Below, piece after piece: positions 2,780-19,862 of a DNA stretch of 64,000 nt; position 1 is the first letter of the stretch; each line of letters opens with the position of its first letter. Position numbers and translations under genes: made by a program. The notes under the pieces were generated by a model that saw nothing but the letters and a program-made list of their open reading frames with translations, searched no databases and was not told the origin of the DNA. This stretch comes from an uncultured Gemmatimonadota bacterium (GTDB taxonomy: Bacteria > JAAXHH01), in NCBI GenBank assembly GCA_951812955.1, contig OX638340.1, forward strand, positions 2,304,001 through 2,368,000, read 5' to 3'.

Positions 2780-4381
2780 TCAGTCAACGACAAACGTGTT
2801 TTCACTACGGCGAAAACTCCTATCATCGCCAAACGAAACATCATAAACCAGTCTATACTCACCGGCGACTTCCGGATCGTATGGGCAAGCGTCGAATTCC
2901 ACCCGTGTGGCCTCGATGTCTTCCCATGTACTGCCCATATCGTCGCTTCGCTGCCATACGGAGTAATGGACCGTCATGGGGATACCTAACGGCTGAGTTG
3001 GGTAGTTGTTTAGTTCAGCACGAAAGAGTGAACTTGCACAGTATTCTATAGTTATAGGAGTATATCCTGGTCCCGTGAATATCAACTTACCGGGCTCGAC
3101 CTTCCAACCTTCCCACGGGACATAGACTATCTCGTCGACTGGCTCGTCGACGCCTTCGCCGCCATCCCCGCCATCCCCGCCTTCACCACCTTCCCCTTCA
3201 GTCGGAACCATGACCGTGATACTCACCATGGCCGACACGTCGCCGGACGCGGCCGTGACTACGGCCATGCCGTTGCCCACCGCTTCTACCAATCCATCCT
3301 CGTCCACGGTGATCACGTTTTCGTCACCGCTCGTCCACGTGACGGCCGGTTCGGCAATGGCATTGTCGTTCCCGTCGCTGACGGAAACCATGAGTTGCAG
3401 GGTCTGTTCGATCTCGGTCAGCGTGGTGGCATCGGGTGCGACCTCGATGCTGATGCCGGCCGGAACCTGGGCGACGGTGATCGACGCAGTCCCCATAGCG
3501 TCTCCGGCCTGTGCCGTGATCTCCGCCATGCCGTTGTCCACCGCGGTCACAAGCCCGTTCTCGTCCACGGTGGCCACGGCGTCATCGGCGCTTGACCAGG
3601 TCACCATCACGTCCTCCATCGCGTTTTCGTGCTGGTCCAGCACGACGGCCGCGAGTTCCACGGTGTCGCCGATCGCTTCCAGCGTGTGCGCAGCGGGCTC
3701 GATCGTCAGGCTCGTCGGCACGGATACGGATACCGTGATGGACGCACTGGCGGACAGGCTGCCGGATGTGGCCGTGATCTCAGCCATCCCGTTACTCACC
3801 GCCGTTACAAGGCCCGCCCCGCTCACGGTCGCCACGGCGTCGTCGCCGCTCGACCAGGTGATGGACTGGCCGGACATGATGTTGTTCCGCTGATCCCGCA
3901 CCGTAGCCGACAACTGTACCGTTTCCCCGATCGCCTTCAGCGTATGGGACGTCGGTGCGACCGTGATCCGGGTCGGCACCGGCTCGGCCACCGTGATGTT
4001 CGCAGTGCCCGTCGCGTTGCCGGACTGCGCCCTTATTTGCGCGGCGCCGTTGGCCACGGCCGTCACCAGGCCATTTCCGCTGACAGTCGCCACCGCGGTA
4101 TTGCTGCTCGACCAAGTCACCGCCTGGCCGGTCATCGGATTGTTGTTCTGGTCCCTCACCATGGCCATCAGTTGCACGGTCGCGCCAATCGTCGCCAGCG
4201 TGTGCGAAGACGGCGTGACAGAAATGCTCGTCGCAACGGGCGCAGGCGGTGGAGCAGGCGGGGTCGGTGTGGACGGCTCGGGACTCGTCGGGCTGCTGTC
4301 CCCGCCACCGCATCCCGCCAGAAAAACCAGGTACAAGGATGCCGTGATCTTGGCGAACACGCGACTGTATGGACCAAACAC
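2780..4381 (-). CDS. Surface lipoprotein with 4 bacterial Ig-like (Big-2) repeats and a distinct C-terminal domain (533 aa)
   Basis: Lipobox LVFLAGC is followed by a Pro/Thr-rich linker. There are four ~85-aa repeats of the type VTPSSHTLATIGATVQL...VTWSS...ATVSGNGLVTAV.NG.A.I.A. A Gly/Glu-rich linker follows, then a ~120-aa C-terminal domain. Confidence 0.8.
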   Translation of the reverse strand: MFGPYSRVFAKITASLYLVFLAGCGGGDSSPTSPEPSTPTPPAPPPAPVATSISVTPSSHTLATIGATVQLMAMVRDQNNNPMTGQAVTWSSSNTAVATVSGNGLVTAVANGAAQIRAQSGNATGTANITVAEPVPTRITVAPTSHTLKAIGETVQLSATVRDQRNNIMSGQSITWSSGDDAVATVSGAGLVTAVSNGMAEITATSGSLSASASITVSVSVPTSLTIEPAAHTLEAIGDTVELAAVVLDQHENAMEDVMVTWSSADDAVATVDENGLVTAVDNGMAEITAQAGDAMGTASITVAQVPAGISIEVAPDATTLTEIEQTLQLMVSVSDGNDNAIAEPAVTWTSGDENVITVDEDGLVEAVGNGMAVVTAASGDVSAMVSITVMVPTEGEGGEGGDGGDGGEGVDEPVDEIVYVPWEGWKVEPGKLIFTGPGYTPITIEYCASSLFRAELNNYPTQPLGIPMTVHYSVWQRSDDMGSTWEDIEATRVEFDACPYDPEVAGEYRLVYDVSFGDDRSFRRSENTFVVD

Positions 4382-4463
4382 TGCTGTCTCCTTTCGGCTA
4401 ATTACTGAAAAGCGGTTCGTTGTAATCTACCGTTCTTGATCTCGATGAACAGATTATCTGACT

Positions 4464-5057
4464 TCATGCACGCAGGCCCTTCATACTCTCCCGGGCCGCT
4501 TCGAGGGTCCGGTCGATGTCTTCTTCGGTATGGGCCAGGGACACAAACCCCGTTTCAAGGCGCGAAGGCGCCAGGTAGACGCCCCGGTCCAGCATATTCC
4601 AGAAGTATCGCCCGTACGTATCCGCGTCTGACGTGGAAGCTGCATCGAAATTGTTGACGGTCTGATCTGTGAAGAAGGTACACATCATGGAGCCCACACG
4701 GGTCAGGCAGGCCGGGACGCCGGCCGCTTCCGCCGCGGCGCGAAGGCCGTCGCCGAGGCGGGCGGCCAGGGATTCCAGCCGGTCGTAGACCCCGGGTTCC
4801 TGAAGCTGCCGCACCGTTTCATATCCAGCGGTCATGGCAAGCGGATTGCCGGACAGCGTGCCGGCCTGGTAAACCTCACCGGCGGGCGCCACGGTTTCCA
4901 TGAACTTTTCCTGGTCGAATAGCGCACGTCCCGCTTCCAGGGGAGTCCGCTGGCCGGTTTCAGCGACTGTATCATCTGCGGTGGATTGGGCCTGGAGGCG
5001 ACCCTGCATGAGAAAAACGAGCAGGACCGCTACCAGAAGTACAGGGTATCTGGTCAT
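4464..5057 (-). pseudogene. Chimeric duplication-junction ORF: signal peptide of the small secreted protein fused in frame to the C-terminal 145 aa of glutamate-1-semialdehyde aminomutase (hemL fragment)
   Basis: Residues METVAPAGEVYQAGTLSGNPL...ESMKGLRA are identical to the C-terminus of hemL at 9855..11144. The N-terminal 50 aa matches the ORF at 1..126. Similarity to unit 2 stops abruptly at ~4903. Confidence 0.6.
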
Positions 5058-5169
5058 GGCAAACCAACTCGTAGGGGGAAATGACGGAAAGAAATGGAAC
5101 CTGCTTTAACATATGCAGGTAATGCCTGCAACCTACCCTTATTCGCGGCCTCAGTCAAACAAATGCGGC

Positions 5170-7541
5170 CTACTCGCTCCGCAGGGTGTCCGCCGGGTTG
5201 AGCATAGCGCTTCGGAAAGTATGCACGCTCACGGTGAGCAGGGCGGTGGCCAGGACAACTAGTCCCGCCGCGACGAAAGGCGCAGCACCGATCTCCGTCC
5301 GGTAGGCGAAGTCCGCCAGCCACTCGTTCATGAGCCACCAGGCGGCCGGCCAGGCCAGGACGTTGCCGATCACCACGAGGACGACGAACTGCCTCGACAG
5401 CAGGCCGACTATATCTGAGACCGCGGCGCCCATCACCTTGCGGATGCCGACTTCCCGCGTGCGGCGCGCGATGTCCAGCGACACGAGTCCATATACGCCG
5501 AGGCAGGCGATCAGCAGGGCGAATACCGCGGAATAGGTGAAAATCAGCGCCAGGTTGTTCTCATCCTGGTAGAACCGTTCTATATCGTCTTCCATGAAGA
5601 AATACTCGTAGGGCGTCTCAGGCGCTGTCCCCTTCCACGCGTCCTCGAGCAGGGAAAGCGTGGTTGGCAGATCCCTGCCGCTGACCCGGACCAGGAGGAA
5701 GCCGTAACTGACCGAAGTGTTACCCATGGATGTGGGATTGAGGGAGAGTATAATCGGATCGATCTCCTGGTGCAGCGACTGGAAATGGAAGTCCTTGACT
5801 ACGCCGATTACCGTATACCCATGGGGCAGTTTGCGCCCGATCGGATCTTCCCATTCCAGCTTCTTTGCCGCGGCCTCGTTGATGATGCACGATTGGAACT
5901 CGTCGTTTACGAATTCGCTGGAAAAATCACGGCCACGGACGAGGTTCAGTTCAAGCGTCTCCAGGTAATCGCGGTCCACGGTCGCCATGAACGCTTCCAG
6001 CTTGTTTCCGTCCGGTCGGTGTAGGCAACCTGGGGCAAGAAATGCCCCTGACCAAAGGTGCTGGAAGTGCCGGAAACCAGGAGTATGTCTTCGTACGGTA
6101 TCACTTTGCTGCGAAAGATCTCCAGGTCGTTTGAATTGAAGGGGGCCTGGATGACTACCACGTTGTGCGGGTTGAACCCCAAATCCCCCGTCCGCACAAA
6201 GTCCAGCTGCCGGGTCATGATGAGAATTGAAATGACGAGCAACGCGGACAACCCGAACTGCACGACCATCAAGCCGCGCACGAAGAGATTCGGCCCTCCG
6301 ATCTGAACCTGTTGCCGGAAGATGGTGACGGGGTTGTAGTGTGAGAGCACCAGGGAAGGATAACTGCCGGAAACCAGGGCGACCAGCACGGTCAAACCCG
6401 TCAGCGCGGCCAGCGTGGATCCGTTCGTCAGGTAGTCCAGCACGAGGGACTTTCCCGCCAGCATATTGAAAACCGGAAGGAACAGGTGGGCCAGGGCCAC
6501 GCTCAGCACCAGGGCGAAGCAGCACAGCGCCGCGGTTTCGCCCAAGTGCTGTCCCATGATCTGGGTTCGGCGCGCGCCGTAAACTTTCCTGACACCGACC
6601 TCTTTCACACGCGAAGACGAACGGCAGACGGCCAGGTTCATGAAGTTGACGCAGGCGATGAATAGTACGAGCAGCGCCGTGCAAATCAGGATGTAGGACC
6701 GGTTGGGATCGCTGGTGGGACCCAGCCCGAATTTGACTTCCTGATCCAGGTAGATATCGGTGATGGGTTGCAGGATCAGATAGGGCGACGAGTAGGCCGG
6801 GAAATGGGTTTCGACGAATTCCGGCAGTTGACTGAGGAGCGATTCTACTCGATCCGGATCCCCGAGTTCGATGAAAGTGGCCGTGGACGAATAGTTCCAC
6901 TTTCCGATGGCATTCGATATCCAGGGGTTTATTTCCGGCGCCTTGTCAAAGGGTATGAGCAGGTCGAACCGAATACTGGAGTTATCCGGTCCGTTCTCCG
7001 CGACGCCGGTTACGGTCAGCGGAATGCCCTGTACCAGGAGCGTCCTGCCCGTCGGAGACTCCTGGCCGAAGTACTTCGCCGCGGCGGATTTGCTGACGAC
7101 CACTGAATTCGCCTCGCCGAGGGCCGTACCGGGATCGCCTTCGATCATCGTGAAGGAGAACATCTCGAAGAAGGACGGATCGCAGAAAAGGGCGTTCTCC
7201 TTGCGGAACGTATCTTCTCCGATGCGAATATCGGATGGATATTCCGTTATGCGCACGGTCCGGACCACGTCGGGATATTGCTGCTCCAGGGTAGCCGCGA
7301 GCGGGAGGGGAGTTCTCGCGCTTATGAACGGGTTGTCGTCGAAATCCACTCCACCGGCTGCGACCTGGTAGATCCGGTCCGATTTCTCGTGGAAGGCGTC
7401 GTAGGTCCACTCGTGGCGGACGAAGAGAAAGATCAGGAGGCAGCACGCGATACCGGTCGACAGGCCAAAAGTATTGATGAAGAAATAACCCTTGTTGGCG
7501 AACAGGTACCGCAACGCGATGACGAGGTTGTTTTTCACCAT
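5170..7541 (-). pseudogene. Second copy of the FtsX/MacB-like ABC permease, apparently frameshifted (two overlapping ORFs 5946..7541 and 5170..6900)
   Basis: The N-terminal 531-aa ORF and the C-terminal 576-aa ORF together align to the 790-aa permease at 238..2610. The reading frame is lost around 6010-6030, where ...AYTDR(T)ETSW in this copy replaces AYTDKDGNKLE in copy 1, consistent with a 1-bp indel. This could be a genuine pseudogene or a sequencing error. Confidence 0.55.
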
Positions 7542-7708
7542 GATCGTATTGCCTCCTGTCGCTTACGCATGCAAGCAGGAAAACGCACCTGGGGAAAGAC
7601 GATCCTGCAATGGCAAAGGGGATCTACGGTTTCGACCCGTCGATCCCCTTAAAGGTTGCATGTTGGTAACTATTGCGATTGGGAACTTACGTTGTGCATT
7701 CCTGACTG

Positions 7709-9772
7709 TCAGGGGATGACAAACGTATTCTCACTACGGCGAAAACTCCTATCATCGTCAAGCGAAATATCACCAACCAGTCTATACTCACCGGCGACTT
7801 CCGGATTGTATGGGCAAGCGTCGAATTCCACCCGTGTGTCCTCGATGTCTTCCCATGTACTGCCCATATCGTCGCTTCGCTGCCATACGGAGTAATGGAC
7901 CGTAATGGTGACACCTAACGGAGTTGGGCGGTTGTTTAGTTCTCCACCTAAGAGTGAACTTGCGCAGTTTACTATAGGTATTGTAGCAAGTCCTGGGACC
8001 GTAAAAACCAACCGACCGGGCTCGACCCGCACACCTTCCCACGGGACGTAGGTGACTTCATCCACCGTAATGGTCACCGTGATGCTCACCATGGCCGACA
8101 CGTCGCCGGACGCGGCCGTAACTTCGGTCATGCCGTTGCCCACAGCTTCTACCAACCCATCCTCGTCCACGGTGACCACGTTCTCGTCACCGCTCGTCCA
8201 CGTGACGGCCGGTTCGGCAATGGCATTGTCGTTCCCGTCGCTGACGGAAACCATGAGTTGCAGGGTCTGTTCGATCTCGGTCAGCGTGGTGGCATCGGGT
8301 GCGACCTCGATGCTGATGCCGGCCGGAACCTGGGCGACGGTGATCGACGCAGTCCCCATAGCGCCTCCGGCCTGGGCCGTGATCTCCGCCATGCCGTTGT
8401 CCACCGCGGTGACCACGCCGTTCTCGTCCACGGTGGCCACGGCGTCGTCGCCGCTCGACCAGGTCACCATCACGTCCTCCATCGCGTTTTCGTGCTGGTC
8501 CAGTACGACGGCCGCGAGTTCCACGGTGTCGCCGATCGCTCCCAGCGTGTGCGCGGCTGGCTCGATCGTGATGCTCGTTGCCACGGGCTCGGATATCACC
8601 ATGACCGTGATACTCACCATGGCCGATACGTCGCCGGATGCGGCCGTAACTGCGGCCATGCCGTTCCCCACCGCTTCTACCAAACCATCCTCGTCCACGG
8701 TGGCCACGTTTTCGTCACCGCTCGTCCACGTGACGGCCGGTTCGGCAATGGCATTGTCGTTCCCGTCGCTGACGGAAACCATGAGTTGCAGGGTCTGTTC
8801 GATCTCGGTCAGCGTGGTGGCATCGGGTGCGACCTCGATGCTGATGCCGGCCGGAACCTGGGCGACGGTGATCGACGCAGTCCCCATAGCGTCTCCGGCC
8901 TGTGCCGTGATCTCCGCCATGCCGTTGTCCACCGCGGTCACAAGCCCGTTCTCGTCCACGGTGGCCACGGCGTCATCGGCGCTTGACCAGGTCACCATCA
9001 CGTCCTCCATCGCGTTTTCGTGCTGGTCCAGCACGACGGCCGCGAGTTCCACGGTGTCGCCGATCGCTTCCAGCGTGTGCGCAGCGGGCTCGATCGTCAG
9101 GCTCGTCGGCACGGATACGGATACCGTGATGGACGCACTGGCGGACAGGCTGCCGGATGTGGCCGTGATCTCAGCCATCCCGTTACTCACCGCCGTTACA
9201 AGGCCCGCCCCGCTCACGGTCGCCACGGCGTCGTCGCCGCTCGACCAGGTGATGGACTGGCCGGACATGATGTTGTTCCGCTGATCCCGCACCGTAGCCG
9301 ACAACTGTACCGTTTCCCCGATCGCCTTCAGCGTATGGGACGTCGGTGCGACCGTGATCCGGGTCGGCACCGGCTCGGCCACCGTGATGTTCGCAGTGCC
9401 CGTCGCGTTGCCGGACTGCGCCCTTATTTGCGCGGCGCCGTTGGCCACGGCCGTCACCAGGCCATTTCCGCTGACAGTCGCCACCGCGGTATTGCTGCTC
9501 GACCAAGTCACCGCCTGGCCGGTCATCGGATTGTTGTTCTGGTCCCTCACCATGGCCATCAGTTGCACGGTCGCGCCAATCGTCGCCAGCGTGTGCGAAG
9601 ACGGCGTGACAGAAATGCTCGTCGCAACGGGCGCAGGCGGTGGAGCAGGCGGGGTCGGTGTGGACGGCTCGGGACTCGTCGGGCTGCTGTCCCCGCCACC
9701 GCATCCCGCCAGAAAAACCAGGTACAAGGATGCCGTGATCTTGGCGAACACGCGACTGTATGGACCAAACAC
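7709..9772 (-). CDS. Surface lipoprotein with 6 Big-2 repeats (paralogue of 2780..4381; 687 aa)
   Basis: The N-terminal ~380 aa are identical to copy 1. There are two extra Big-2 repeats (an internal tandem duplication of repeats 3-4). The C-terminal domain is diverged from copy 1 and the Gly/Glu linker is absent. Confidence 0.8.
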   Translation of the reverse strand: MFGPYSRVFAKITASLYLVFLAGCGGGDSSPTSPEPSTPTPPAPPPAPVATSISVTPSSHTLATIGATVQLMAMVRDQNNNPMTGQAVTWSSSNTAVATVSGNGLVTAVANGAAQIRAQSGNATGTANITVAEPVPTRITVAPTSHTLKAIGETVQLSATVRDQRNNIMSGQSITWSSGDDAVATVSGAGLVTAVSNGMAEITATSGSLSASASITVSVSVPTSLTIEPAAHTLEAIGDTVELAAVVLDQHENAMEDVMVTWSSADDAVATVDENGLVTAVDNGMAEITAQAGDAMGTASITVAQVPAGISIEVAPDATTLTEIEQTLQLMVSVSDGNDNAIAEPAVTWTSGDENVATVDEDGLVEAVGNGMAAVTAASGDVSAMVSITVMVISEPVATSITIEPAAHTLGAIGDTVELAAVVLDQHENAMEDVMVTWSSGDDAVATVDENGVVTAVDNGMAEITAQAGGAMGTASITVAQVPAGISIEVAPDATTLTEIEQTLQLMVSVSDGNDNAIAEPAVTWTSGDENVVTVDEDGLVEAVGNGMTEVTAASGDVSAMVSITVTITVDEVTYVPWEGVRVEPGRLVFTVPGLATIPIVNCASSLLGGELNNRPTPLGVTITVHYSVWQRSDDMGSTWEDIEDTRVEFDACPYNPEVAGEYRLVGDISLDDDRSFRRSENTFVIP

Positions 9773-9854
9773 TGCTGTCTCCTTTCGGCTAATTACTGAA
9801 AAGCGGTTCGTTGTAATCTACCGTTCTTGATCTCGATGAACAGATTATCTGACT

Positions 9855-11144
9855 TCATGCACGCAGGCCCTTCATACTCTCCCGGGCCGCTTCGAGGGTC
9901 CGGTCGATGTCTTCTTCGGTATGGGCCAGGGACACAAACCCCGTTTCAAGGCGCGAAGGCGCCAGGTAGACGCCCCGGTCCAGCATATTCCAGAAGTATC
10001 GCCCGTACGTATCCGCGTCTGACGTGGAAGCTGCATCGAAATTGTTGACGGTCTGATCTGTGAAGAAGGTACACATCATGGAGCCCACACGGGTCAGGCA
10101 GGCCGGGACGCCGGCCGCTTCCGCCGCGGCGCGAAGGCCGTCGCCGAGGCGGGCGGCCAGGGATTCCAGCCGGTCGTAGACCCCGGGTTCCTGAAGCTGC
10201 CGCACCGTTTCATATCCAGCGGTCATGGCAAGCGGATTGCCGGACAGCGTGCCGGCCTGGTAAACCTCACCGGCGGGCGCCACGGTTTCCATGATTTCCC
10301 TGCGACCGCCATAGGCCCCCACGGGAAGTCCTCCCCCGATGATCTTGCCCAGGCAGGTCATGTCGGCCGAGATGCCGAATCGTTCCTGCGCTCCGCCGAA
10401 TGCGATCCTGAATCCCGTGATGACCTCGTCAAAAATCAGAATGATCCCCCGCTTCTCCGTCTCTTCCCGAATGGTTTCGAGAAAGCCTTCGGCCGGAGGG
10501 ATCATGCCCATGTTGCCGGCGACCGGCTCTACGATCACGCAGGCGACGTCGCCGCCCCGCTCCGCCAGGGTGCGCCGGACGGCCTCGACGTCGTTGTAGG
10601 GTAGATTGATGGTCATCTTCGCCAGGTCCGCAGGCACGCCGGGACTGTCGGGGATGCCGAATGTCGCGGCGCCGGAACCGGCCTGGATGAGAAAGCTGTC
10701 TCCGTGGCCGTGGTATCCCGCCTCGAATTTGACCGCCAGGTCGCGCCCCGTGTATCCGCGGGCGACGCGCAGGGCGCTCATGGTCGCTTCCGTGCCGGAG
10801 TTGACCATGCGTATCAGGTCGATGGACGGGAAGGCGGTCCTGACCAGTTCCGCCAGCCTGATCTCGGCTTCGGTGGGCGTGCCGAAACTCGTACCCCGTT
10901 CACAGGCCTTCTTCAGGGCCTCGACCACGGCGGGATGGCCGTGGCCCAGGATCAGCGGTCCCCAGGATCCCAGGTAATCGATGTACTCGTTGCCGTCCAC
11001 GTCGTAGACCCTGGAACCCGCGCCCCGGTCCATGAAGACGGGGCTTCCTCCAACCCGCCCGAAATTCCGCACGGGGCTGTTCACCCCGCCGGGCATGGAT
11101 CGCTGGGCCTGGTCGAAGAGGGTACTGGATCGGGAACGGTTCAT
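9855..11144 (-). CDS. hemL: Glutamate-1-semialdehyde 2,1-aminomutase
   Basis: Full-length class III PLP aminotransferase of 429 aa. Motifs are typical of HemL (e.g. YNDVEAV, GGLPVGAYGGRREIM). Confidence 0.95.
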   Translation of the reverse strand: MNRSRSSTLFDQAQRSMPGGVNSPVRNFGRVGGSPVFMDRGAGSRVYDVDGNEYIDYLGSWGPLILGHGHPAVVEALKKACERGTSFGTPTEAEIRLAELVRTAFPSIDLIRMVNSGTEATMSALRVARGYTGRDLAVKFEAGYHGHGDSFLIQAGSGAATFGIPDSPGVPADLAKMTINLPYNDVEAVRRTLAERGGDVACVIVEPVAGNMGMIPPAEGFLETIREETEKRGIILIFDEVITGFRIAFGGAQERFGISADMTCLGKIIGGGLPVGAYGGRREIMETVAPAGEVYQAGTLSGNPLAMTAGYETVRQLQEPGVYDRLESLAARLGDGLRAAAEAAGVPACLTRVGSMMCTFFTDQTVNNFDAASTSDADTYGRYFWNMLDRGVYLAPSRLETGFVSLAHTEEDIDRTLEAARESMKGLRA

Positions 11145-11159
11145 ACGATTTATTCCATT

Positions 11160-12128
11160 TCAGAGTCTTCGGGCGACATCCATCGCGAAATAAGTGAGGA
11201 TCATGTCGGCGCCGGCGCGTTTTATGGCGGTCAGCGACTCCAGGACGATCCGTTCTTCGTCGATCCAGCCTTTCTGTCCTGCCGCCTTGATCATGGCGTA
11301 TTCCCCGCTCACGTTGTAGGCGGCCACCGGCACTTCAAAGGCCGATTTGACTCGTTGTATCACGTCGAGATAGGCCAGGGCCGGCTTGACCATGACGATA
11401 TCGGCGCCTTCCTCAAGGTCGAGTTCTACTTCCCGCAGCGCTTCGGTGGCGTTCGCCGGGTCCATCTGGTAGGAACGGCGGTCGCCGAATTGCGGGACCG
11501 AGTCCGCGGCGTCGCGAAAGGGCCCGTAATACGCCGAAGCGTACTTGGCGGAATAGGCCAGGATCGGGACATGCCCGAGGTGTTCGCCGTCCAGACCCTC
11601 CCGGATCGCACGCACGCGGCCGTCCATCATGTCCGACGGCGCAACCAGGTCCGCGCCGGCGCGGGCCTGCGAGAGCGCGGTCCTGACGAGCAGGCGAAGC
11701 GTGGCATCGTTCTCCACGTCGCCGTCCCGGATCACGCCGCAGTGCCCGTGATCGGTGTACTCGCAGAGGCATACGTCGCCGATGACGGTCAGTTCCGGTA
11801 CCGCTTGCTTGATCGCGCCAATGGCCCGTTGCACGATGCCGTCGTCCGCATAGGCTCCGGAACCGTAGGCGTCCTTGCTCTCCGGGATGCCGAAGAGCAT
11901 GACGGCCGGGATACCCAGGTCCACGACTTCACGGCAGGCCTCCACGGCCTGGTCAACCGACTGCCGGTCCACGCCGGGCATCGAATCTACCGGGGAACGT
12001 ACGCCTTCGCCCGGGCAGATGAACATGGGATAGACCAGGTCGTCCACGGAGAGCCGGGTCTCGCCGATCATGGCGCGCAGGCTTCCGGTCCGCCGCAGGC
12101 GCCGTAGCCGATGTACGGGAAATGCCAT
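11160..12128 (-). CDS. hemB: Porphobilinogen synthase (delta-aminolevulinate dehydratase), Zn-type
   Basis: Collinear match to E. coli HemB along the full length. It includes the Cys-rich zinc site [14 protein letters not shown] and the active-site region [10 protein letters not shown]. Confidence 0.95.
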
Positions 12129-12154
12129 GAGTTATCCTGCCCGCCGCCGGGACA

Positions 12155-12772
12155 TCAGTACCCCCCGCAGTTGGCGCAACCGCCGCTGTCAAATCCGTTC
12201 AAAGCACTGCAGCGTTCACACTGGAACAGGAGATGCCCGGCGTCTATGGACCGTGACGCCATCAAATTCAGCGCCGTCGCCCGGAGTTTCGAGGGCACGA
12301 TGATCCTCGCCGACTCGTCCGAACATGGACCGGTAAGCAGGCCGGAGTCCTGCTTGGTCGAGAACACCCGGCTGTCCACACCCTGCTGTGCGAGGAAACG
12401 CTGGTAGCTCAGCGCTTCACGGTCTTCGGCCCGATAGAGGATTTCCTCCTTCGGAAACTCTTCTACCAATCCATGTCTTTCACAGAAATACCGGCCATGA
12501 CGGCGTATCCCGCAGTCCTCGCACACGTGCCGTCCGCAGACGACGCACAGGCCGTGCGCAGGTCCGGCCGGATGGTTCAGGCATCGAAGATCGTCGATGA
12601 ATACTGTGCCGCAGACCGGGCAGGACCCCAGGTCGCCCGGGATCTCCTCCTTGCACTCGTCGCAAACCCACGTCGACACCTCATTCAGGGCGTTAACCAG
12701 GGTGGACGCGCAGATAGGGCATTTTTCCTCGCCGCGGGCGTATTCACATTCGCATTCCGGGCAGAAAGGCAT
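12155..12772 (-). CDS. Cysteine-rich zinc-ribbon protein (about 8 CxxC pairs), unknown function, embedded in the haem operon
   Basis: 205 aa with repeated CxxC pairs (CPEC, CPIC, CDEC, CPVC, CVVC, CEDC, CERC, CANC). No similarity to known Hem enzymes was recognised. Confidence 0.55.
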   Translation of the reverse strand: MPFCPECECEYARGEEKCPICASTLVNALNEVSTWVCDECKEEIPGDLGSCPVCGTVFIDDLRCLNHPAGPAHGLCVVCGRHVCEDCGIRRHGRYFCERHGLVEEFPKEEILYRAEDREALSYQRFLAQQGVDSRVFSTKQDSGLLTGPCSDESARIIVPSKLRATALNLMASRSIDAGHLLFQCERCSALNGFDSGGCANCGGY

Positions 12773-12967
12773 AGAAGTCCGCTCATATCAACAGGATGGT
12801 GCCATGACGGGCGCGGTGAAGCCACTGGCCCGATGCCGGAAAGTATACGAACCCGATGCCGGATAGTTTACTGGTCCAAAGTCGGCCGCGCGTCGTATTT
12901 CACACGGATATGTCCCTTATTCACGGACCCGACAAATATACACCGGGCCGCAAAGTCATGGCAATCG

Positions 12968-14539
12968 TTATTCCGTGTGCTGCTTTCCCGCGGCCAGCCG
13001 GTCGCGCACGATCGCGGCCACGAGCGCTGAGACGGTGGCCTGAGCGGGCACAATGTCCACGGACAGGCCTGCTTCCGCGGCGGTTTTGGCCGTGGCCGGA
13101 CCTATGCAGGCGATGCGGACGCCCCCGGCCAGCCGCTTAAGGCGATCCGGCCCCGCGGCCTTCGTAAACGCCGACACGGCCGACGAACTCGCGAATACGG
13201 CGAGATGGATCTTCCGGTCTTCCAGCATGGACGCGATGCCGTCCGGCAACCTCTCTTCCATGACCGTTCGATAGACCGTTATCCTCGTCACGGACGCACC
13301 GGCGCGGGCAAGTCCCTCCACGACGGCTGGCCCCGCGATATCCGCCGCGGGAAAGAGGATCCGTGCATCCAGCAGGTCGCGGTTTCCGGCCAGGGTTTCC
13401 ACCAGGTTTTCGGCCCGGAAGACATCGGGTTGGCAGTCCGCTTCAATCCCGCAGTTTCGCAGCGCGCCGGCCGTGGCCCGGCCTACCGCGGCGACGCGAA
13501 CTCCGCCCAGGGCCCTGGCGTCCAGGCCCTGTTCGACTAAACGCGAGAAAAACGCCTTCACGGCGTTACCGCTGGTGAAAACCACGTAATCGAATCCGGA
13601 AAGGTCGGACAGCGCGGCATCGGTTTCCGACCAGTCATCGGGCGCTTCGATCCGTATCAGCGGAGCTTCGACCGGCTCCGCGCCCTGCCGGACGAGAGAT
13701 TCCGACAGTTCGCCGGCCTGGTCGCGGGCGCGTGTTACCAGTGCTCGGACCCCGAAAAGCGGTTTCGATTCGAACCAATCGAGCTGCGAACGCAGCGAAA
13801 CGACTTCGCCCACGACGATCAGTACGGGCGGGGTGAAGGAAGCCGGACGGGACCTGGATACGATATCGTCCAAAGTGCCGACGAGGGTCCTTTGCTTCGG
13901 CGTCGTGCCCCACTGGATCAGCGCGATGGGCGTATCCTTCGGCCGCCCGTGTTCGATCAACCGTTCCACGATGAAGGGCAGGTTCCGCGCGCCCATGTAG
14001 AAGATCAGCGTGCCGATCCGTTTGGCGAAAGCCTCCCAGTCTAGATCCGTCCGGGACTTGTCCGGCGATTCGTGGCCGGTGACCACGGTCATCGTCGAGG
14101 TGATCTCACGATGGGTCACCGGTATGCCGGCGTAGGCCGGGACCGCGACGGCCGCCGTGACGCCGGGAACGACCTCGAATGGGATTCCGTGGCGTTGCAG
14201 GTGCAGTCCTTCTTCGCCTCCCCGGCCGAACACGAATGGGTCGCCGCCCTTCAACCGGACCACGGTCTTCCCGGCCTCGCTGTGACGCACCAGCAGGTTG
14301 TTGATCTCCTCCTGCCGTCCGGGACGCCAGGGAACGCGGATGCGCACGGCCTGTGAAGGCGCCTCCGCCACCAGCCGGTCATCGGCGAGGAAATCGGCAA
14401 CGACGACGTCGGCCCGGCGCACGCATTCCAGGCCCTTCACGGTAATCAGTCCGGGGTCGCCGGGACCCGCGCCCACCAGGTAAACGATTCCTGCGGACCG
14501 CGGGGTGGATACGCGCTTGGTCGGGGATTCGCCGTTCAT
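12968..14539 (-). CDS. cobA/hemD: Bifunctional uroporphyrinogen-III C-methyltransferase / uroporphyrinogen-III synthase
   Basis: The N-terminal half carries the SUMT signature VYLVGAGPGDPGLITVKG...VVRLKGGDPFVFGRGGEE. The C-terminal half is HemD-like (...LFGVRALVTRARDQ...). The 3' end overlaps hemC by 4 bp. Confidence 0.9.
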   Translation of the reverse strand: MNGESPTKRVSTPRSAGIVYLVGAGPGDPGLITVKGLECVRRADVVVADFLADDRLVAEAPSQAVRIRVPWRPGRQEEINNLLVRHSEAGKTVVRLKGGDPFVFGRGGEEGLHLQRHGIPFEVVPGVTAAVAVPAYAGIPVTHREITSTMTVVTGHESPDKSRTDLDWEAFAKRIGTLIFYMGARNLPFIVERLIEHGRPKDTPIALIQWGTTPKQRTLVGTLDDIVSRSRPASFTPPVLIVVGEVVSLRSQLDWFESKPLFGVRALVTRARDQAGELSESLVRQGAEPVEAPLIRIEAPDDWSETDAALSDLSGFDYVVFTSGNAVKAFFSRLVEQGLDARALGGVRVAAVGRATAGALRNCGIEADCQPDVFRAENLVETLAGNRDLLDARILFPAADIAGPAVVEGLARAGASVTRITVYRTVMEERLPDGIASMLEDRKIHLAVFASSSAVSAFTKAAGPDRLKRLAGGVRIACIGPATAKTAAEAGLSVDIVPAQATVSALVAAIVRDRLAAGKQHTE

Positions 14540-15516
14540 TGGGATTCCGTGGTCCGCCTGGTCGGCCCGGACGACTTGGACTGCGTGTTACCTTCGGCCT
14601 GCTCGGCCTGCTCGGCTTGTTCGGCCCGTGCCATCACCGCTTCCGCCAGCCGGCGGCCCAGTTCCGGTCCTTCTTCCGGCAGTCCCCGCAGGCCGTGGCG
14701 CGCGATCCAGCTGCCGTCATCGGCGGCCAGCACGGCGTCCAGCTCCAGGCAATCGTCCCGGATTCTCCCCCAGGCGCCAACCGGGGTATGGCAACCGCCG
14801 CCTATACGATAGAGAAAAGACCGCTCCGCCATCACCGCCTGCCTGGCCGGGAGGTCCTCGATTCGCCTTGCCGCTTCCAAGGTGGGATGATCGTCCTTAC
14901 GGGTTTCAATCGCGAGCGCCGCCTGGCCGACGGCCGGCATGCAGACCTCCGGCGGCAATATCTCGGATATGCGGTCATTCCAGCCCAGTCGCTGCAATCC
15001 CGCCACGGCCAGCACGATGGCGTCCGGACCGTCCGGTTCTTCCAGTTTCTTCAACCTGGTGTCTATATTCCCTCGAATGCCCGAAAAGCGCAGATCCGGC
15101 CGGTAATGTTGAAGCTGCGAGCGCCGCCTCGGACTCCCCGTGGCGACCAGGGCGCCCGATGGGAGCTCGTCGAGTCTGGCGCTGTCGCGGCTGATCAGGG
15201 CGTCCCGCACGTCCACGCGCTCCGGCACCGCGGCGATCGCCAATCCATCGGGAAGGGACGTGGGCAGGTCCTTGAGACTGTGTACGGCCATGTCGATCTC
15301 TCCCGAGACCAGGGCCCGTTCCAGTTCCTTGACGAAGACGCCCTCGCCGCCGAAGGTGTCCAGGGAAGCGCTTCTGTCAGAATCGCCCTTCGTCTTGATG
15401 ACGCGCACCTGTACGGACAGGCCGCCCTGGCCCGCTTCCAGGTCCTTGGCCACCGAATGGGCCTGGACGAGGGCCAGCCTGCTGCCGCGGGTGCCTATGA
15501 TCAATGAAGAAGCCAT
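14536..15516 (-). CDS. hemC: Hydroxymethylbilane synthase (porphobilinogen deaminase)
   Basis: N-terminal LIIGTRGSRLALVQA motif. The length and domain order are typical of HemC. Confidence 0.93.
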   Translation of the reverse strand: MASSLIIGTRGSRLALVQAHSVAKDLEAGQGGLSVQVRVIKTKGDSDRSASLDTFGGEGVFVKELERALVSGEIDMAVHSLKDLPTSLPDGLAIAAVPERVDVRDALISRDSARLDELPSGALVATGSPRRRSQLQHYRPDLRFSGIRGNIDTRLKKLEEPDGPDAIVLAVAGLQRLGWNDRISEILPPEVCMPAVGQAALAIETRKDDHPTLEAARRIEDLPARQAVMAERSFLYRIGGGCHTPVGAWGRIRDDCLELDAVLAADDGSWIARHGLRGLPEEGPELGRRLAEAVMARAEQAEQAEQAEGNTQSKSSGPTRRTTESQ

Positions 15517-15555
15517 GGGAAGGGATCGACGTCCCGGACGCCTGGACTCGCCGCG

Positions 15556-16854
15556 CTATTCGTTTCCGGCGCCGTTCTTTTCGTTCCCGTGTTCGTCGAG
15601 TCCGAAGAGGTGTCGCAGGCTGTAGAGGTGGTAGTCCTTGTGCTCCGGATCGGTAGTGTTTCTGAGCTGGACCGTCGGTTGATGCAGCAGCTTGTTTACG
15701 ATGGCGCGGGTCATCTTGTCCACGGTCTCGCGGTCCTCTTCGGAAAGATGACCGAGTTGCGCGAAGGCGCGGCCGACTTCCTGGTGCCGGACGTCGTCCG
15801 CGAAGTGGCGGAGTTGGGCAATGGTGGGCGTGATGGAGAGATTCTGGTACCATGCGAGTAGCCGTTCTACCTCTGTCTCGACAATCGCCTCCACCTTCTG
15901 CGCTTCCACCTTACGCGCCTCTGCGTTGTCGTCCACCACCGATTGCAGGTCGTCCATGTCGTAAAGGATCACATTATAGAGATCACGCACGCGGGGGTCG
16001 ATATCCCGTGGCGCGGCGATGTCGATCAGGAAAATGGGCCGGTTATGACGATCGTGCATGATGTCGATCATCCGGTCCCTTCCCAGCACCGGTTCGGTGG
16101 CGCCGGTGGAACTGATGACGATATCGACATCGGAGATCATCTGCAGTCCGTCGTGCAGGGAAACGGCGATCCCGTCGAAGCGGTGGGCCAGGTCGGCAGC
16201 CCGGTCGTAGGTCCTGTTGGCGACGATGAGCCGCTTCACGCCCTGGTCGACGAGGTACTCCGCGGTGCGTTCGCCGGTCTCTCCCGCCCCGATCAACATG
16301 GCCGTATGCTGCCGCAGATCCTTGAAGATCTTCCGGGCGAGTTCGACCGCCACGGAACTGACGGAAACCGAACCCGACCCGATCTCCGTTGTCTCCCGCA
16401 CCTGCTTGCCCACGGCCAGCGCCTTTTCAAACAACCGGTTGAGGACCAGTCCCGTGGTCTTCGTATTCAGCGACTGCATGTAGGCCTCTCTGACCTGGCC
16501 GAGGATCTGCTGTTCCCCGACGACCATCGAGTCCAGGCTGGAGACGACCCGGAACAGGTGCCGGATGACCGCCTCGTCCCTCCGGTGATAGAGGTAAGGA
16601 GACAGTACGCCTTTGTCCACGCCGTGGATCTCGTGAAACCACGCTTCGATCGGACCGGGATCGGTATGTTCCTCATCGGTGGTCGCGTACATTTCACTGC
16701 GGTTGCACGTGGAAAGCAGTACCGCTTCCAAAATGCCGGTCGAAGTCTTCACGAAGGAAAGGGCCTTATCCTGGAGCGACTTCGTCAGTACCGCCTGGTC
16801 GCGTACATCCACAGGCGCGGTATGGTGACTCAGTCCGACGAGTGTAAGATGCAT
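15556..16854 (-). CDS. hemA: Glutamyl-tRNA reductase
   Basis: The conserved HemA N-terminus MHLTLVGLSHHTAPVDVRDQ starts at the reverse-strand ATG at 16852-16854. The tracked ORF start at 17148 is a GC-rich, out-of-context extension that overlaps sirC. Residues ...TCNRSEMY... and the NADPH-binding GAGETG motif are present. Confidence 0.9.
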   Translation of the reverse strand: MHLTLVGLSHHTAPVDVRDQAVLTKSLQDKALSFVKTSTGILEAVLLSTCNRSEMYATTDEEHTDPGPIEAWFHEIHGVDKGVLSPYLYHRRDEAVIRHLFRVVSSLDSMVVGEQQILGQVREAYMQSLNTKTTGLVLNRLFEKALAVGKQVRETTEIGSGSVSVSSVAVELARKIFKDLRQHTAMLIGAGETGERTAEYLVDQGVKRLIVANRTYDRAADLAHRFDGIAVSLHDGLQMISDVDIVISSTGATEPVLGRDRMIDIMHDRHNRPIFLIDIAAPRDIDPRVRDLYNVILYDMDDLQSVVDDNAEARKVEAQKVEAIVETEVERLLAWYQNLSITPTIAQLRHFADDVRHQEVGRAFAQLGHLSEEDRETVDKMTRAIVNKLLHQPTVQLRNTTDPEHKDYHLYSLRHLFGLDEHGNEKNGAGNE

Positions 16855-17507
16855 GACTCCACCCTGTCGCGTGCTTCTTCCGCGCGTCCGGCGCGTATGA
16901 GATCGAGGAGGTCGGAATCTACCAGGGACGTCCACAACCTCGCGCGTGTTTCGATTTCGTCGGGGTGCCTGTCCTTCATCCGGGGACGGAACTCCCCCAG
17001 CAGGTCGAGCAGGACGGCGTACTCGGCCCCGAATGCCTCTTCCAGCTGCCCACGGATCTTCTTCGCCAGCGCGGGGCTCTTGCCCCCTGTGGATATGGCG
17101 ATGCACAGGTCGCCCTGTCGAACGATGGATGGCACGATGTACCTGCACAGTTCGGGCACGTCCACCACGTTGACCATGATGCCTTCCGTCTCGGCATCCA
17201 CGTAGACCCGCTCGTTGACTTCCGCGGAGTCGGTCGCGGAGATGACCAGCCTGAAATCCCGGACGTCGCCGGGTTCGTACCGCCTTGCGAGCCAGCGCAA
17301 TTCGCTATTGTCCGCCCGGTCACGCAGTTCCTCCGTCAGATCGGGGCTGATCACGGTTACAACCCCTCCGCATTCGAGCAACGATCCAGCCTTCTCAGCC
17401 GCGATCGCGCCGCCGCCTACCACCAGGCACGGCTGTCCTTCGATGTCAACGAAAGCGGGGTAGTATTTCTTCATGGCCTTTCTTCCATCTTTCACCGGAT
17501 CGGTCAC
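16830..17507 (-). CDS. sirC: Precorrin-2 dehydrogenase / sirohydrochlorin ferrochelatase (siroheme synthase N-terminal domain, CysG-N/SirC/Met8-like)
   Basis: The Rossmann motif VVGGGAIAAEKA is typical of CysG-N/Met8. The 225-aa length fits. It sits directly upstream of hemA and overlaps it by ~25 bp. Confidence 0.8.
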   Translation of the reverse strand: MTDPVKDGRKAMKKYYPAFVDIEGQPCLVVGGGAIAAEKAGSLLECGGVVTVISPDLTEELRDRADNSELRWLARRYEPGDVRDFRLVISATDSAEVNERVYVDAETEGIMVNVVDVPELCRYIVPSIVRQGDLCIAISTGGKSPALAKKIRGQLEEAFGAEYAVLLDLLGEFRPRMKDRHPDEIETRARLWTSLVDSDLLDLIRAGRAEEARDRVESCILHSSD

Positions 17508-17537
17508 CGAAATCTCTCGCCGGCATCAGGCTTCGGA

Positions 17538-18359
17538 TCAGTCGAATATATGCAGGTTGGTCCATAGTCCGGCGCCGAGATAGGCCAGCAGCACGGACGC
17601 GAACCCGGCCATGGAAATGATGGCCGCCCTTTCGCCCTGCCAACCCGCGGTATAGCGCGTAATCAGCTGGGAAGTGTAGATAACCCAGGTCAGCATCACG
17701 CACAGTACTTTCGGATCCAGCAGCCAGGGCATTATCGAATCCCACGCGGCCGTCGCCCACCAGATCCCCGTTGCGATACCCGCGGACAGGAATACCCATC
17801 CGATGAGCGTTGCCTTCAGGTTCATCTCGTCCAGCATGCCCAGCGCGGGCAGCCGCGAAAACACCAGGCCCACGCGCCGGTGGTGGATGTAGTACATCTG
17901 CATGACGTACAACAGCCCGGTGATGAATGTGAAGGAAAACGCCGCGTATGCCAGGAAACTCGCCGTTACGTGGAAATTGAACCATGGGCTCTGGAGGAGT
18001 GGCGGCAACGGATCGACTGGACTCATGAACGCCGTGGAGGCTGTCTGCGCCGCCAGGATCAGGGGCAGGACGAACACCCCCAGCGACCGGTCGTGGAAAC
18101 GGCGCTCCAGGAACAGGTAGACCACGGCGATGAGCCATGCGAAGAAGCTCATCGACTCGTGAAGGCCGACGAAAGGCGCGTGGCTGGATTCGACGGCGCG
18201 GGCGATCAGAAAGGCGCTGTGGCAGGCCAGCGCCAGCACCAGGCACAGGCTGGCGTAGAACCCTGACCTGGGTTGCTTCGTCCAGAAATGGCGGAAGTAG
18301 ATCACCGTGGCGACCGCGTAACCCGCCAGAATCAATCCATGCAGAATATAGATGCCCAA
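17538..18359 (-). CDS. Cytochrome c assembly (CcsA/ResC)-family membrane protein; HemX-like first gene of the hem operon
   Basis: Polytopic membrane protein with a Trp-rich WWD-like motif (GIWWATAAWDSIMPW). Its position upstream of hemA mirrors Bacillus hemAXCDBL. Confidence 0.7.
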   Translation of the reverse strand: MGIYILHGLILAGYAVATVIYFRHFWTKQPRSGFYASLCLVLALACHSAFLIARAVESSHAPFVGLHESMSFFAWLIAVVYLFLERRFHDRSLGVFVLPLILAAQTASTAFMSPVDPLPPLLQSPWFNFHVTASFLAYAAFSFTFITGLLYVMQMYYIHHRRVGLVFSRLPALGMLDEMNLKATLIGWVFLSAGIATGIWWATAAWDSIMPWLLDPKVLCVMLTWVIYTSQLITRYTAGWQGERAAIISMAGFASVLLAYLGAGLWTNLHIFD

Positions 18360-18507
18360 GGATGTAACCTCGAAGTGATACCGCCTCGATAATTCAGACC
18401 CGATAAGATACCGTAAAATACCGTCCTATCATGTATTTATCAAGTCGAAAGGGGTGCGGGCCGGGTCGCCTGGGTCGCACGCGCCTGGATCGCCTCGCTA
18501 GGGTCGC

Positions 18508-19425
18508 CTAGTCCACGTTTCTCATTTGTGCCAGTATATCCATGCCTACGCTTCGGCCCCACGCCTCCATGACCCGCGCGAACAGTGGGCCGGGCTTGCC
18601 GTCGCCGATGGGCGTGTTGTTGATGCGCGTACAAGGCGCGAGACAATACGGCGTACTCGTCAGCCACGCCTCGTCGGCATTGACGGCGTCGTATGGCTGA
18701 AGATCCTTCTCGACCCAGTCCAGCCCCAGGTCGGGCGCTAGTTCCCGCAGCGTGACCAGACTTACGCCTTCGAGGATGTTCCGGCTGGTGGGCGTATAGA
18801 TAGTATCATTTTCCACCACGACGAAGTTGGCCCCCGAGCACTCGGTGAGGTTGCCGTCCAGGTCGAGCAGCAGCGAGGTGGCGGAGGGGTCGACGGACTG
18901 CGTCTGCCGATCGGCCAGCCAGTAGTGCAGGCGCGAGCGGTTTTTCGTCTTGGGATCGACGCACTGGGGCGGTACGTGCCGGATGGAGGGTGTGACCACG
19001 TGGACGCCCTGCTCGAAGAAGGGGCGCCACACGGTGAAGGGCAGCGGAAAGGAGTGGATGCACAAGGTAGGCGAAAGGCGCACCGGCTTACCGGCGCTGC
19101 CCGCGTAGATCTGGTTTTCCCCGGGGGTTACGAAGTGGACGACGCCCAGGTCCTGCTCCGGGCCGATCAGCCTGCAGTTGGTCTCGATGAGGCTTCGTGT
19201 GCGTTCGACCAGGCCATCGTGGTCCGTATCCAGCTCGAAACCGGCGTATTTGCACGACCGCAGGAGCCGCCGCACATGCTCTTCCAGGCGAAACGGCGCA
19301 TGCCCGAAAGTGCGGGTCATTTCGGTCACGGTGGCCCCCAGGACAATCCCCAGGTCATAGATATTCAAATGGGCCTCGGAAGCTGGGACGAATCCATCGT
19401 TGAGATAGACGACCGGTTCATTCAT
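18508..19425 (-). CDS. Class IV aminotransferase (branched-chain amino acid / D-amino acid aminotransferase or ADC lyase family)
   Basis: 305 aa with fold-type IV PLP enzyme features. The N-terminus VYLNDGFVPASEAHLNIYDLG is typical of BCAT/DAAT/PabC. Confidence 0.8.
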   Translation of the reverse strand: MNEPVVYLNDGFVPASEAHLNIYDLGIVLGATVTEMTRTFGHAPFRLEEHVRRLLRSCKYAGFELDTDHDGLVERTRSLIETNCRLIGPEQDLGVVHFVTPGENQIYAGSAGKPVRLSPTLCIHSFPLPFTVWRPFFEQGVHVVTPSIRHVPPQCVDPKTKNRSRLHYWLADRQTQSVDPSATSLLLDLDGNLTECSGANFVVVENDTIYTPTSRNILEGVSLVTLRELAPDLGLDWVEKDLQPYDAVNADEAWLTSTPYCLAPCTRINNTPIGDGKPGPLFARVMEAWGRSVGMDILAQMRNVD

Positions 19426-19491
19426 AACGCGTTTTTCTCCTGTCTATAAAACCGTAACTCATGGGTCTTCAGTGCAACGGGTCCACGCCGG

Positions 19492-19545
19492 ATGGCGCCT
19501 TTCGTTCGCCGCGCCAGATGGCGCCTTTCGTTCGCCGCGCCCCGT
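19492..19545. repeat. Perfect 27-bp direct tandem repeat (x2) in the divergent intergenic region between the class IV aminotransferase and era
   Basis: Sequence ggatggcgcctttcgttcgccgcgcc agatggcgcctttcgttcgccgcgcc. Confidence 0.8.
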
Positions 19546-19862
19546 ATTCACGTCGCATTCGAAATACAAACTACACCCTCGGCCGTGACAATTAAACAGC
19601 GAATGATAAAAACATCCGGTTCACGGTCGCGCGGGCAGCCGTAACAGGCCGTTCGCGGGCAGGCCTTCAGTGGCCTGTACACGGGAAGGCCGTAACTGCC
19701 CGTGACAGGCCGATACTGGCAATTATCGGGCATGTCCCACCTGTTCCCGTCGTGCGGCCAACAGTCTTTTCTCTTTTGTTAAATCATAGTATTACGTATA
19801 AAGAACGTTCCAGTCCTATCTTGACTCATCGTACGCCCCTGGCTGTCAAACGGCAGTTTCTC

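Follow-up and report, generated by a model that had tools for sequence, protein, structure and literature searches.

The hem locus and its extra gene

We analysed the haem-biosynthesis locus of an uncultured Gemmatimonadota bacterium (lineage JAAXHH01) in a stretch of 64,000 nucleotides (nt), hereafter the window, taken from contig OX638340.1 (positions 2,304,001 to 2,368,000 of the forward strand; assembly GCA_951812955.1). All positions below are counted from the first letter of the window. The list of open reading frames (ORFs), together with Pfam and NCBIfam matches, revealed eight consecutive minus-strand genes between positions 9855 and 18359, in the order hemX-like, sirC, hemA, hemC, cobA-hemD, ZnR, hemB and hemL, ZnR being our name for a Cys-rich protein of 205 amino acids (aa). 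A first-pass annotation of the window had listed the same eight genes at the correct positions:

17538-18359, minus strand: HemX-like integral membrane protein, 273 aa (PF01578 'Cytochrome C assembly', E=4e-37)
16830-17507, minus strand: SirC, a CysG N-terminal-type precorrin-2 dehydrogenase, 225 aa (TIGR01470, 170 bits against a cutoff of 62)
15556-16854, minus strand: hemA, glutamyl-tRNA reductase, 432 aa (GlutR_N/Shikimate_DH/GlutR_dimer; TIGR01035, 454 bits)
14536-15516, minus strand: hemC, hydroxymethylbilane synthase, 326 aa (Porphobil_deam and Porphobil_deamC; TIGR00212, 318 bits)
12968-14539, minus strand: cobA-hemD fusion, 523 aa (TP_methylase at residues 19-226, HEM4 at residues 277-508; TIGR01469, 296 bits)
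12155-12772, minus strand: ZnR, Cys-rich protein, 205 aa (homologues, invariant cysteines, dN/dS)
11160-12128, minus strand: hemB, porphobilinogen synthase, 322 aa (ALAD, E=1e-151; NF006762, 518 bits)
9855-11144, minus strand: hemL, glutamate-1-semialdehyde 2,1-aminomutase, 429 aa (TIGR00713, 620 bits against a cutoff of 527)

The locus is an early haem/sirohaem operon of ordinary style plus one extra gene, that is, a lineage-specific variant of a well-known operon with a conserved, uncharacterised accessory gene. The extra gene, ZnR, lies between cobA-hemD and hemB and is separated from hemB by 26 nt that include an AGGA ribosome-binding site. The first-pass annotation had credited the protein with about eight CxxC pairs; we counted exactly eight.

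ZnR is a genuine gene held in front of hemB

A single-sequence search with ZnR returned 31 homologues, which are full-length even where identity drops to 41%. Compared with ten relatives, ZnR has a dN/dS of 0.16-0.30, comparable to that of hemC and above those of hemA, hemB and hemL. The GC content at third codon positions is 0.72, against 0.77-0.81 in the neighbouring genes, and the codon-position GC pattern agrees with that of the neighbours. By these sequence measures ZnR is a genuine protein-coding gene. The first-pass annotation had conceded that the ORF would be spurious if it had no homologues at this position and no coding signal, and we found both homologues and a coding signal.

The genes of the operon were then placed by tblastn in 46 loci drawn from species-representative genomes, ENA/Logan assemblies and JGI metagenomes. 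Conservation of the gene neighbourhood had been suggested at first pass as a check, and the place of ZnR proved to be kept: hemB follows it directly in 42 of the 42 loci that have downstream sequence (some of these being redundant), at ZnR identities of 41-99%, and hemL is then present wherever the sequence of the locus reaches far enough. The gap between ZnR and hemB is short throughout (about 3-170 nt), and no sampled locus of this hemB-linked clade has ZnR placed elsewhere. The pair is kept where sirC and the cobA half are missing (L001, L022, L024-26, L029, L052-55), in a locus whose outer flanks are wholly different (L002, with Lon protease and PcRGLX), and in loci where a gene for a geranylgeranyl-reductase (GGR)-family FAD protein is inserted between hemD and ZnR (L002, L030, L031/L058 and L057), the last being the most divergent hemB-linked loci. 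Since sirC and cobA vary while ZnR-hemB is constant, it is hemB-hemL to which ZnR is tied, and not the sirohaem branch. The inserted GGR-like FAD oxidoreductase, of about 393 aa, abuts the start of ZnR (L002:6743-7924, L030:3890-5068, L031:1693-2889, L057:3820-4983).

The HemB encoded next to ZnR is of the zinc type. Zinc-dependent porphobilinogen synthases carry the motif DxCxCx(Y/F)x3G(H/Q)CG in the classification of Jaffe. This Cys3 zinc-site motif is present in the window and in all 41 ZnR-linked related loci.

Two putative promoters divide the cluster

A consensus scan revealed two sigma70-like promoters in the cluster:

18415-18443, minus strand: P1, TTGATA-17-TATTTT, before the hemX-like gene
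12935-12964, minus strand: P2, TTGCCA-18-TATATT, before ZnR-hemB-hemL

In the alignment of related loci, P1 lies inside a block of about 45 nt, GACTTGATAAATACATGATAAGACGGTATTTTAnGGTATCTT, which is conserved in 16-17 loci while its flanks vary. The P2 block, CGATTGCCnTG...GACGCCCCGGTGTATATTTGTCGGG, is conserved in 20 loci, less well than that of P1. P2 begins 5 nt past the stop codon of hemD, on the upstream side of ZnR and outside the ZnR-hemB gap; the leader that follows it is variable, from about 45 to 190 nt. The cluster therefore appears to consist of two transcription units, the second being ZnR-hemB-hemL, and we infer from these conserved elements both that P1 and P2 act as promoters and that the genes behind each are co-transcribed. 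A scan of positions 9500-19800 against Rfam at E<=1 gave no match, hence no known riboswitch or leader, and a structured RNA in the 5' leader of ZnR is disfavoured because the length of this leader is not conserved. A scan for terminators gave nothing above shuffled expectation.

At the other end of the cluster (18395-18450, minus strand), the conservation of the P1 block reaches well past the -35 and -10 hexamers. Within it lie an inverted repeat, TGATAAGA...TCTTGTCA, and a pair of direct TGATAA repeats 11 nt apart; these repeats may form an operator, perhaps of Fur/PerR-like type.

ZnR is built of zinc fingers around a DUF2007 domain

The CxxC pairs of ZnR lie at residues 4-7, 18-21, 37-40, 51-54, 76-79, 84-87, 185-188 and 199-202, and two CxxH pairs lie at 64-67 and 97-100. 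Eighteen of its twenty cysteines occupy ligand positions. Within the hemB-linked clade every ligand cysteine but C4 is invariant (17 of 18), and C4, H67 and H100 are each kept in at least 90% of the sequences. These ligands delimit the following modules:

C4, C7, C18, C21: zinc ribbon 1
C37, C40, C51, C54: zinc ribbon 2
C64, H67, C76, C79, C84, C87, C97, H100: B-box-like two-zinc finger
about 105-178: DUF2007/GlnB-like alpha/beta domain, about 75 residues
C185, C188, C199, C202: zinc ribbon 3, C-terminal

From this arrangement we predict that the four finger modules of ZnR together bind five structural zinc ions. Profile searches against zinc-ribbon and DUF families, which the first-pass annotation had proposed, were informative in part: the matches of the window protein itself were weak and below the gathering thresholds, and a homology to DUF2007 emerged by way of its relatives. 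The two N-terminal ribbons match DZR (PF12773) at 16.5 bits (E=0.0096), which is weak against the gathering threshold of 27.3; matches at E<0.01 occur in 11 of 12 members of the clade (the best at 1e-7), with the four CxxC knuckles invariant. The B-box match (PF00643) is likewise weak in the window protein (18.0 bits against 24.1) and reaches the gathering threshold in some relatives (P0210, 24.1 bits; P0122, 31.6 bits). Across 50 sequences C64, C76, C79, C84, C87 and C97 are invariant and H67 is present in at least 90%, while H100 is kept at that level (at least 90%) in the hemB-linked clade only and is replaced in distant relatives. DUF2007 is no longer detected by Pfam in the window ZnR, its domain having diverged. 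Nonetheless, the profile of the ZnR clade aligns over about 170 residues, at 99.6% probability (hhalign), to DZR relatives that carry PF09413/DUF2007, so that the middle domain is a DUF2007 domain (PF09413, GlnB-like clan) by homology to members of that family.

Eukaryotic B-boxes (PF00643), such as B-box1 of Midline-1 (2JUN/2FFW), space their first six ligands like the finger of ZnR (C-x2-H/C-x8-C-x2-C-x4-C-x2-C), and eight ligands imply a cross-braced two-zinc site in ZnR as in the B-box. The two differ in that the similarity is weak, the last ligand pair of ZnR is spaced x9/x2, and there is no RING/coiled-coil (TRIM) context. B-boxes mediate protein-protein contacts. A sequence profile search of the PDB with ZnR gave nothing significant, the best hit being the Midline-1 B-box (E=0.013).

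The AlphaFold2 model of ZnR, built on a 50-sequence alignment, has a mean pLDDT of 89 (predicted local distance difference test) and a pTM of 0.47 (predicted template modelling score). This combination of high local and low global confidence suggests small domains with an undefined mutual arrangement, like beads on a string. The isoelectric point (pI) of ZnR is 5.07, and the whole family is acidic (pI 4.0-5.5), the B-box segment alone being near neutral; this acidity argues for protein and not nucleic-acid partners.

Two other readings of the protein were considered and rejected. By inspection of the sequence ZnR is acidic and Cys-rich and has no hydrophobic segment, which speaks against a membrane or secreted protein, and we take it to be soluble and cytoplasmic. 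Its CPxC knuckles recall haem-regulatory CP motifs; CPxC, however, is the normal form of the zinc knuckle.

Relatives of ZnR accompany other proteins

A profile search yielded about 200 relatives of ZnR in a word-indexed database, and 591 clusters at E<=1e-10 among 1.84 billion representatives. The members of the former set are DZR/B-box/DUF2007 proteins of 150-200 aa, mostly unnamed; the few with a named source come from metagenome-assembled genomes (MAGs) labelled Bacteroidota or Ignavibacteria and are entered as 'DUF2007 domain-containing protein' or 'zinc ribbon domain-containing protein'. These DUF2007 proteins (PF09413; solved example 2HFV) share with ZnR the order ribbon, ribbon, eight-ligand finger, DUF2007, and the same acidity. 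They differ from the ZnR clade, which adds a C-terminal CxxC...CxxC ribbon, has a diverged DUF2007 part and is linked to hemB, whereas they are linked to a CPBP protease and cdsA.

The dominant gene order outside haem loci is a heptosyltransferase-family GT9 gene, DUF3108, (ArgZ-like), a CPBP/Rce1-like intramembrane protease, the ZnR homologue and CdsA. This GT9-to-CdsA context was found in 8 of 9 sampled non-haem contexts, with stop and start codons mostly near-abutting or overlapping (the CPBP-ZnR-CdsA loci, from Ignavibacteria/Bacteroidota-type MAGs, are L036-L043, L045, L046 and L064-L066, with the gene at about 5001-6600 in each). Another relative stands in the order TPR, ZnR homologue, DUF512, Der, PlsY, GpsA. 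The CPBP/CdsA context links the family to membrane and lipid biogenesis and not to haem. A GGR-like gene also occurs near the CPBP-ZnR-CdsA cluster of L046 (362-1528); a search of the window for the GGR-like gene and for CPBP and CdsA homologues found none.

In other proteins the ribbon/B-box/DUF2007 module is part of a longer chain. It forms the C-terminus of divergent SecY proteins of about 550-570 aa (P0185, P0188, P0211 and P0249), with an hhalign E of 1e-23 for the module of the SecY-like P0185. Further fusions join it to membrane proteins with a TPM domain (P0208) or with DUF2569 (P0235). No prior description of these SecY-like, TPM or DUF2569 fusions turned up in our literature searches, which were not aimed at them. 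Because it is joined genetically or covalently to differing partner proteins, we regard the module as a portable cytoplasmic unit.

The remaining genes follow a known style of hem cluster

The other functions of the locus are those of a familiar operon. HemA, a HemX-family protein, HemC, HemD, HemB and HemL are all encoded in one co-oriented cluster, as Pfam and NCBIfam matches show. The first-pass annotation had read the locus as a Bacillus-style hemAXCDBL operon, and all six functions, with a HemX/CcsA-family first gene, are indeed there. The exact order is different: the canonical A-X-C-D-B-L without other genes is not matched, the window having X-sirC-A-C-(cobA-D)-ZnR-B-L. The operons of Bacillus subtilis and Staphylococcus aureus (PMC5801465; PMC10991733) share with the window the six functions in a single co-oriented cluster, the proximity of hemX to hemA and, as in many phyla, cysG-type sirohaem genes alongside. 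The window departs from them in its gene order, its cobA-fused hemD, an apparent internal promoter and the extra ZnR, which has no counterpart in described hemAXCDBL operons.

We assign the first gene to the HemX family on the basis of its PF01578 match, its size of about 270 aa and its proximity to hemA, from which it is split by sirC alone. HemX is a PF01578 member found across bacterial phyla that controls the abundance of GtrR (Choby et al., PMC5801465); of the genomes with hemX, 94% have it next to gtrR/hemA, and it commonly clusters with hmbS, uroS, pbgS, gsaM and cysG (PMC5801465). We rejected the alternative identity of a System II cytochrome c synthase (CcsA/CcsB), since the score against TIGR03144 CcsB (151.8 bits) is under the cutoff of 187.6 and no ResB partner adjoins the gene, whose neighbours are sirC and a class IV aminotransferase. 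In 24 related loci we also compared evolutionary rates as residual covariation, that is, after removal of the shared phylogenetic signal. HemX-like and HemA gave the highest value of any pair in the cluster (r=0.64), which fits the reported functional link between HemX and GtrR and is suggestive only.

The SirC-type protein consists of NAD_binding_7, Sirohm_synth_M and CysG_dimeriser domains (Pfam) and possibly has ferrochelatase activity as well. The start of hemA is MHLTLVG at 16854, because orthologues have 432 aa and GlutR_N begins at residue 6 when counted from there; an upstream GTG at 17148 is spurious. The start of hemA therefore overlaps the end of sirC by 25 nt. The cobA-hemD gene, which overlaps hemC by 4 nt, encodes uroporphyrinogen-III C-methyltransferase and uroporphyrinogen-III synthase in one polypeptide; the same 523-aa fusion occurs in L003, and cobA and hemD matches abut in most related loci. 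Both features, sirC placed before and overlapping hemA and hemD fused to the methyltransferase (SUMT/cobA), had been described correctly at first pass, where they were held to be notable divergences. We do not see them as such: clustering of hemX-gtrR with cysG has already been described across phyla (PMC5801465), and because such clustering is documented the HemX/SirC/CobA-HemD layout belongs to a known style of hem cluster. HemC is longer here than in several relatives (326 against 302 aa); the additional tail, in the C-terminal region at 14536-14640, contains an AEQAEQAEQAE repeat followed by a low-complexity segment that other loci do not keep.

A consumer of sirohaem is encoded elsewhere in the window:

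59313-60968, plus strand: assimilatory sulfite/nitrite reductase (NIR_SIR and NIR_SIR_ferr)
60965-61792, plus strand: 3'-phosphoadenosine-5'-phosphosulfate (PAPS) reductase, after the sulfite reductase (PAPS_reduct)

The link that the first-pass annotation had drawn between the sirohaem branch of the operon and this sulfite reductase is sound.

Possible role of ZnR

To our knowledge, control of bacterial haem synthesis is known almost solely at the first enzyme (HemA/GtrR, through haem, proteolysis and HemX). The literature that we searched describes no protein partner of porphobilinogen synthase and no link of a zinc-ribbon or DUF2007 protein with hemB, and a review of haem regulation names no protein partner of PbgS (PMC10991733). 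Sharing a dedicated putative promoter with hemB-hemL, ZnR is a concrete candidate for such a HemB partner.

We tentatively propose that ZnR is a portable protein-binding sensor/adaptor recruited to act on HemB, possibly together with HemL, a role we consider possible while being readier to see it fail than hold. That ZnR is a partner-directed accessory module is indicated by its relatives, since they are tightly embedded beside CPBP/cdsA or fused to membrane proteins. Under this proposal, P1 would drive the hemX-like gene, sirC, hemA, hemC and cobA-hemD, a unit covering the input of the 5-aminolaevulinate (ALA) pathway and uroporphyrinogen III, part of which would be diverted via precorrin-2 to sirohaem for sulfite reductase; P2 would drive ZnR, hemB and hemL. 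The module, which in other phyla is encoded beside or fused to its presumed target protein, would in the lineage of the window have been recruited in front of hemB. The zinc fingers of ZnR would dock it onto porphobilinogen synthase, or onto HemB together with HemL, and ZnR would then tune the activity, assembly state or stability of HemB on a signal. This signal might be a ligand that the DUF2007 domain recognises, or else the oxidation of Zn-thiolate sites. The outcome would be a second control point past the HemX/HemA step. In its most far-reaching form, ZnR would be the founding haem-linked protein in a so far unrecognised family of portable cytoplasmic zinc-finger/DUF2007 partner-control modules and a dedicated post-translational regulator of porphobilinogen synthase, its relatives doing the equivalent for CPBP protease/CdsA and SecY-like channels; this extension is rather unlikely.

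Several results weigh against a role at HemB. One syntenic lineage accounts for most of the 42 loci, and since it also keeps the era, aminotransferase and Big_2 genes on the flanks, part of the ZnR-hemB adjacency is simple inheritance. Residual rate covariation is non-discriminating (ZnR-HemB, r=0.34; ZnR-HemC, r=0.45). The wider family has no haem link, so that ZnR may have a generic function that does not involve HemB. No ligand of DUF2007 is known, nor did the literature searched give it a function, and no structural or sequence match in the PDB offers a guide to the mechanism of ZnR.

The same observations feed the idea that ZnR is a passenger with a generic role apart from tetrapyrroles, for instance whatever role its relatives play beside CPBP protease/CdsA or on SecY-like proteins, which landed before hemB in an ancestor and stays there by supplying or sharing the hemB-hemL promoter. 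The dominant GT9-DUF3108-CPBP-ZnR-CdsA context and the TPR-ZnR-DUF512-Der-PlsY-GpsA context are free of haem genes, close relatives share, as a whole, much of the gene order around the hem operon, and the rate covariation of ZnR is non-specific. A passenger, however, fits poorly with an adjacency that survives down to 41% identity, change of both flanks, loss of sirC/cobA and insertion of an upstream gene, as well as with the lack of ZnR elsewhere in the sampled loci of the clade, the short gap to hemB and a promoter that lies upstream of ZnR. We regard it as somewhat unlikely but a serious contender; were it true, the locus of this uncultured symbiont lineage would amount to a normal hem/sirohaem operon. 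The abundance of conserved cysteines (18 ligands among twenty) also suggests a thiol/zinc redox switch, in which oxidation would free zinc and change the conformation of ZnR, coupling porphobilinogen synthesis to oxidative stress or shielding the Cys3 site of HemB. Release of zinc upon oxidation is typical of Hsp33 or RsrA-type switches. The HemB of all 41 linked loci has this oxidation-prone site, and PerR mediates peroxide control of hem operons in Bacillus (PMC10991733). We nevertheless judge a redox switch improbable: ribbons of the CPxC/CxxC kind and B-box fingers mostly serve as inert structural sites, relatives beside CdsA and SecY-like proteins have the same fingers, and neither the Pfam/NCBIfam scans nor the PDB profile search gave a redox-switch family signature.

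The first-pass annotation had suggested a metal or redox sensor or a chaperone for the zinc-dependent HemB. Five predicted zinc sites in 205 aa and the co-location of a zinc-type HemB in every locus would suit a protein that stores Zn(II) or passes it to HemB. The proposed role is all that ZnR would have in common with the COG0523 zinc metallochaperones (ZigA/ZagA/YeiR/Zng1): it lacks a CobW/P-loop GTPase domain and a CxCC motif, has no likeness to them in sequence or fold, and is not a member. Nor does it match any metallochaperone family in Pfam or NCBIfam. Cys4 ribbons bind zinc too tightly for transfer, and those of ZnR look structural; moreover, the homologous module accompanies CdsA and SecY-like proteins that have no obvious zinc link, which weakens a zinc-specific role. 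Zinc supply or buffering is thus less likely than the sensor/adaptor role, and we consider it highly improbable. Least probable of all in our estimate is a nucleic-acid-binding autoregulator whose ribbons would contact P2 or the mRNA leader of hemB-hemL and control expression. Binding to DNA or RNA is frequent among zinc ribbons, and the non-coding block just before ZnR is strongly conserved. But this block is adequately explained as -35/-10 elements, the leader varies in length and sequence without matching Rfam, all of the family is acidic, and fusions to membrane proteins misfit a DNA-binding regulator.

If ZnR were indeed a post-translational regulator of HemB, it would constitute a second tetrapyrrole checkpoint, distinct from HemX/GtrR control. 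ZnR also offers a way in to the function of DUF2007 multi-zinc-finger proteins, which are spread over several lineages of the Fibrobacterota-Chlorobiota-Bacteroidota (FCB) superphylum.

Lineage and other features of the window

At the ZnR locus the window is 99% identical to a MAG chromosome, OY762445.1. The relatives are MAGs labelled Latescibacterota, Gemmatimonadetes/Gemmatimonadota and, in one case, Zixiibacteriota. Among them are marine, groundwater and lake MAGs as well as some with APA_bin, IRC1_bin, SB0665_bin and Plut_ names, which we take to be sponge- and coral-derived. The window also encodes an ankyrin-repeat protein of 355 aa (33757-34824) and a homologue of PorV, of type IX secretion (31373-32311), genes that are consistent with a sponge symbiont of the FCB group.

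Positions 238-9772 (minus strand) hold a tandem duplication of a module that consists of a MacB/FtsX-type permease and a multi-Big_2 surface protein (copies at 238-2610 with 2780-4381, and at 5170-7541 with 7709-9772). In the second copy the permease is broken up into two overlapping ORFs (5170-6900 and 5946-7541), which suggests either a frameshift or an error in the assembly. Finally, a single ORF at 42571-43203 joins an N-terminal cold-shock domain to a glyoxalase/VOC domain, an uncommon fusion.

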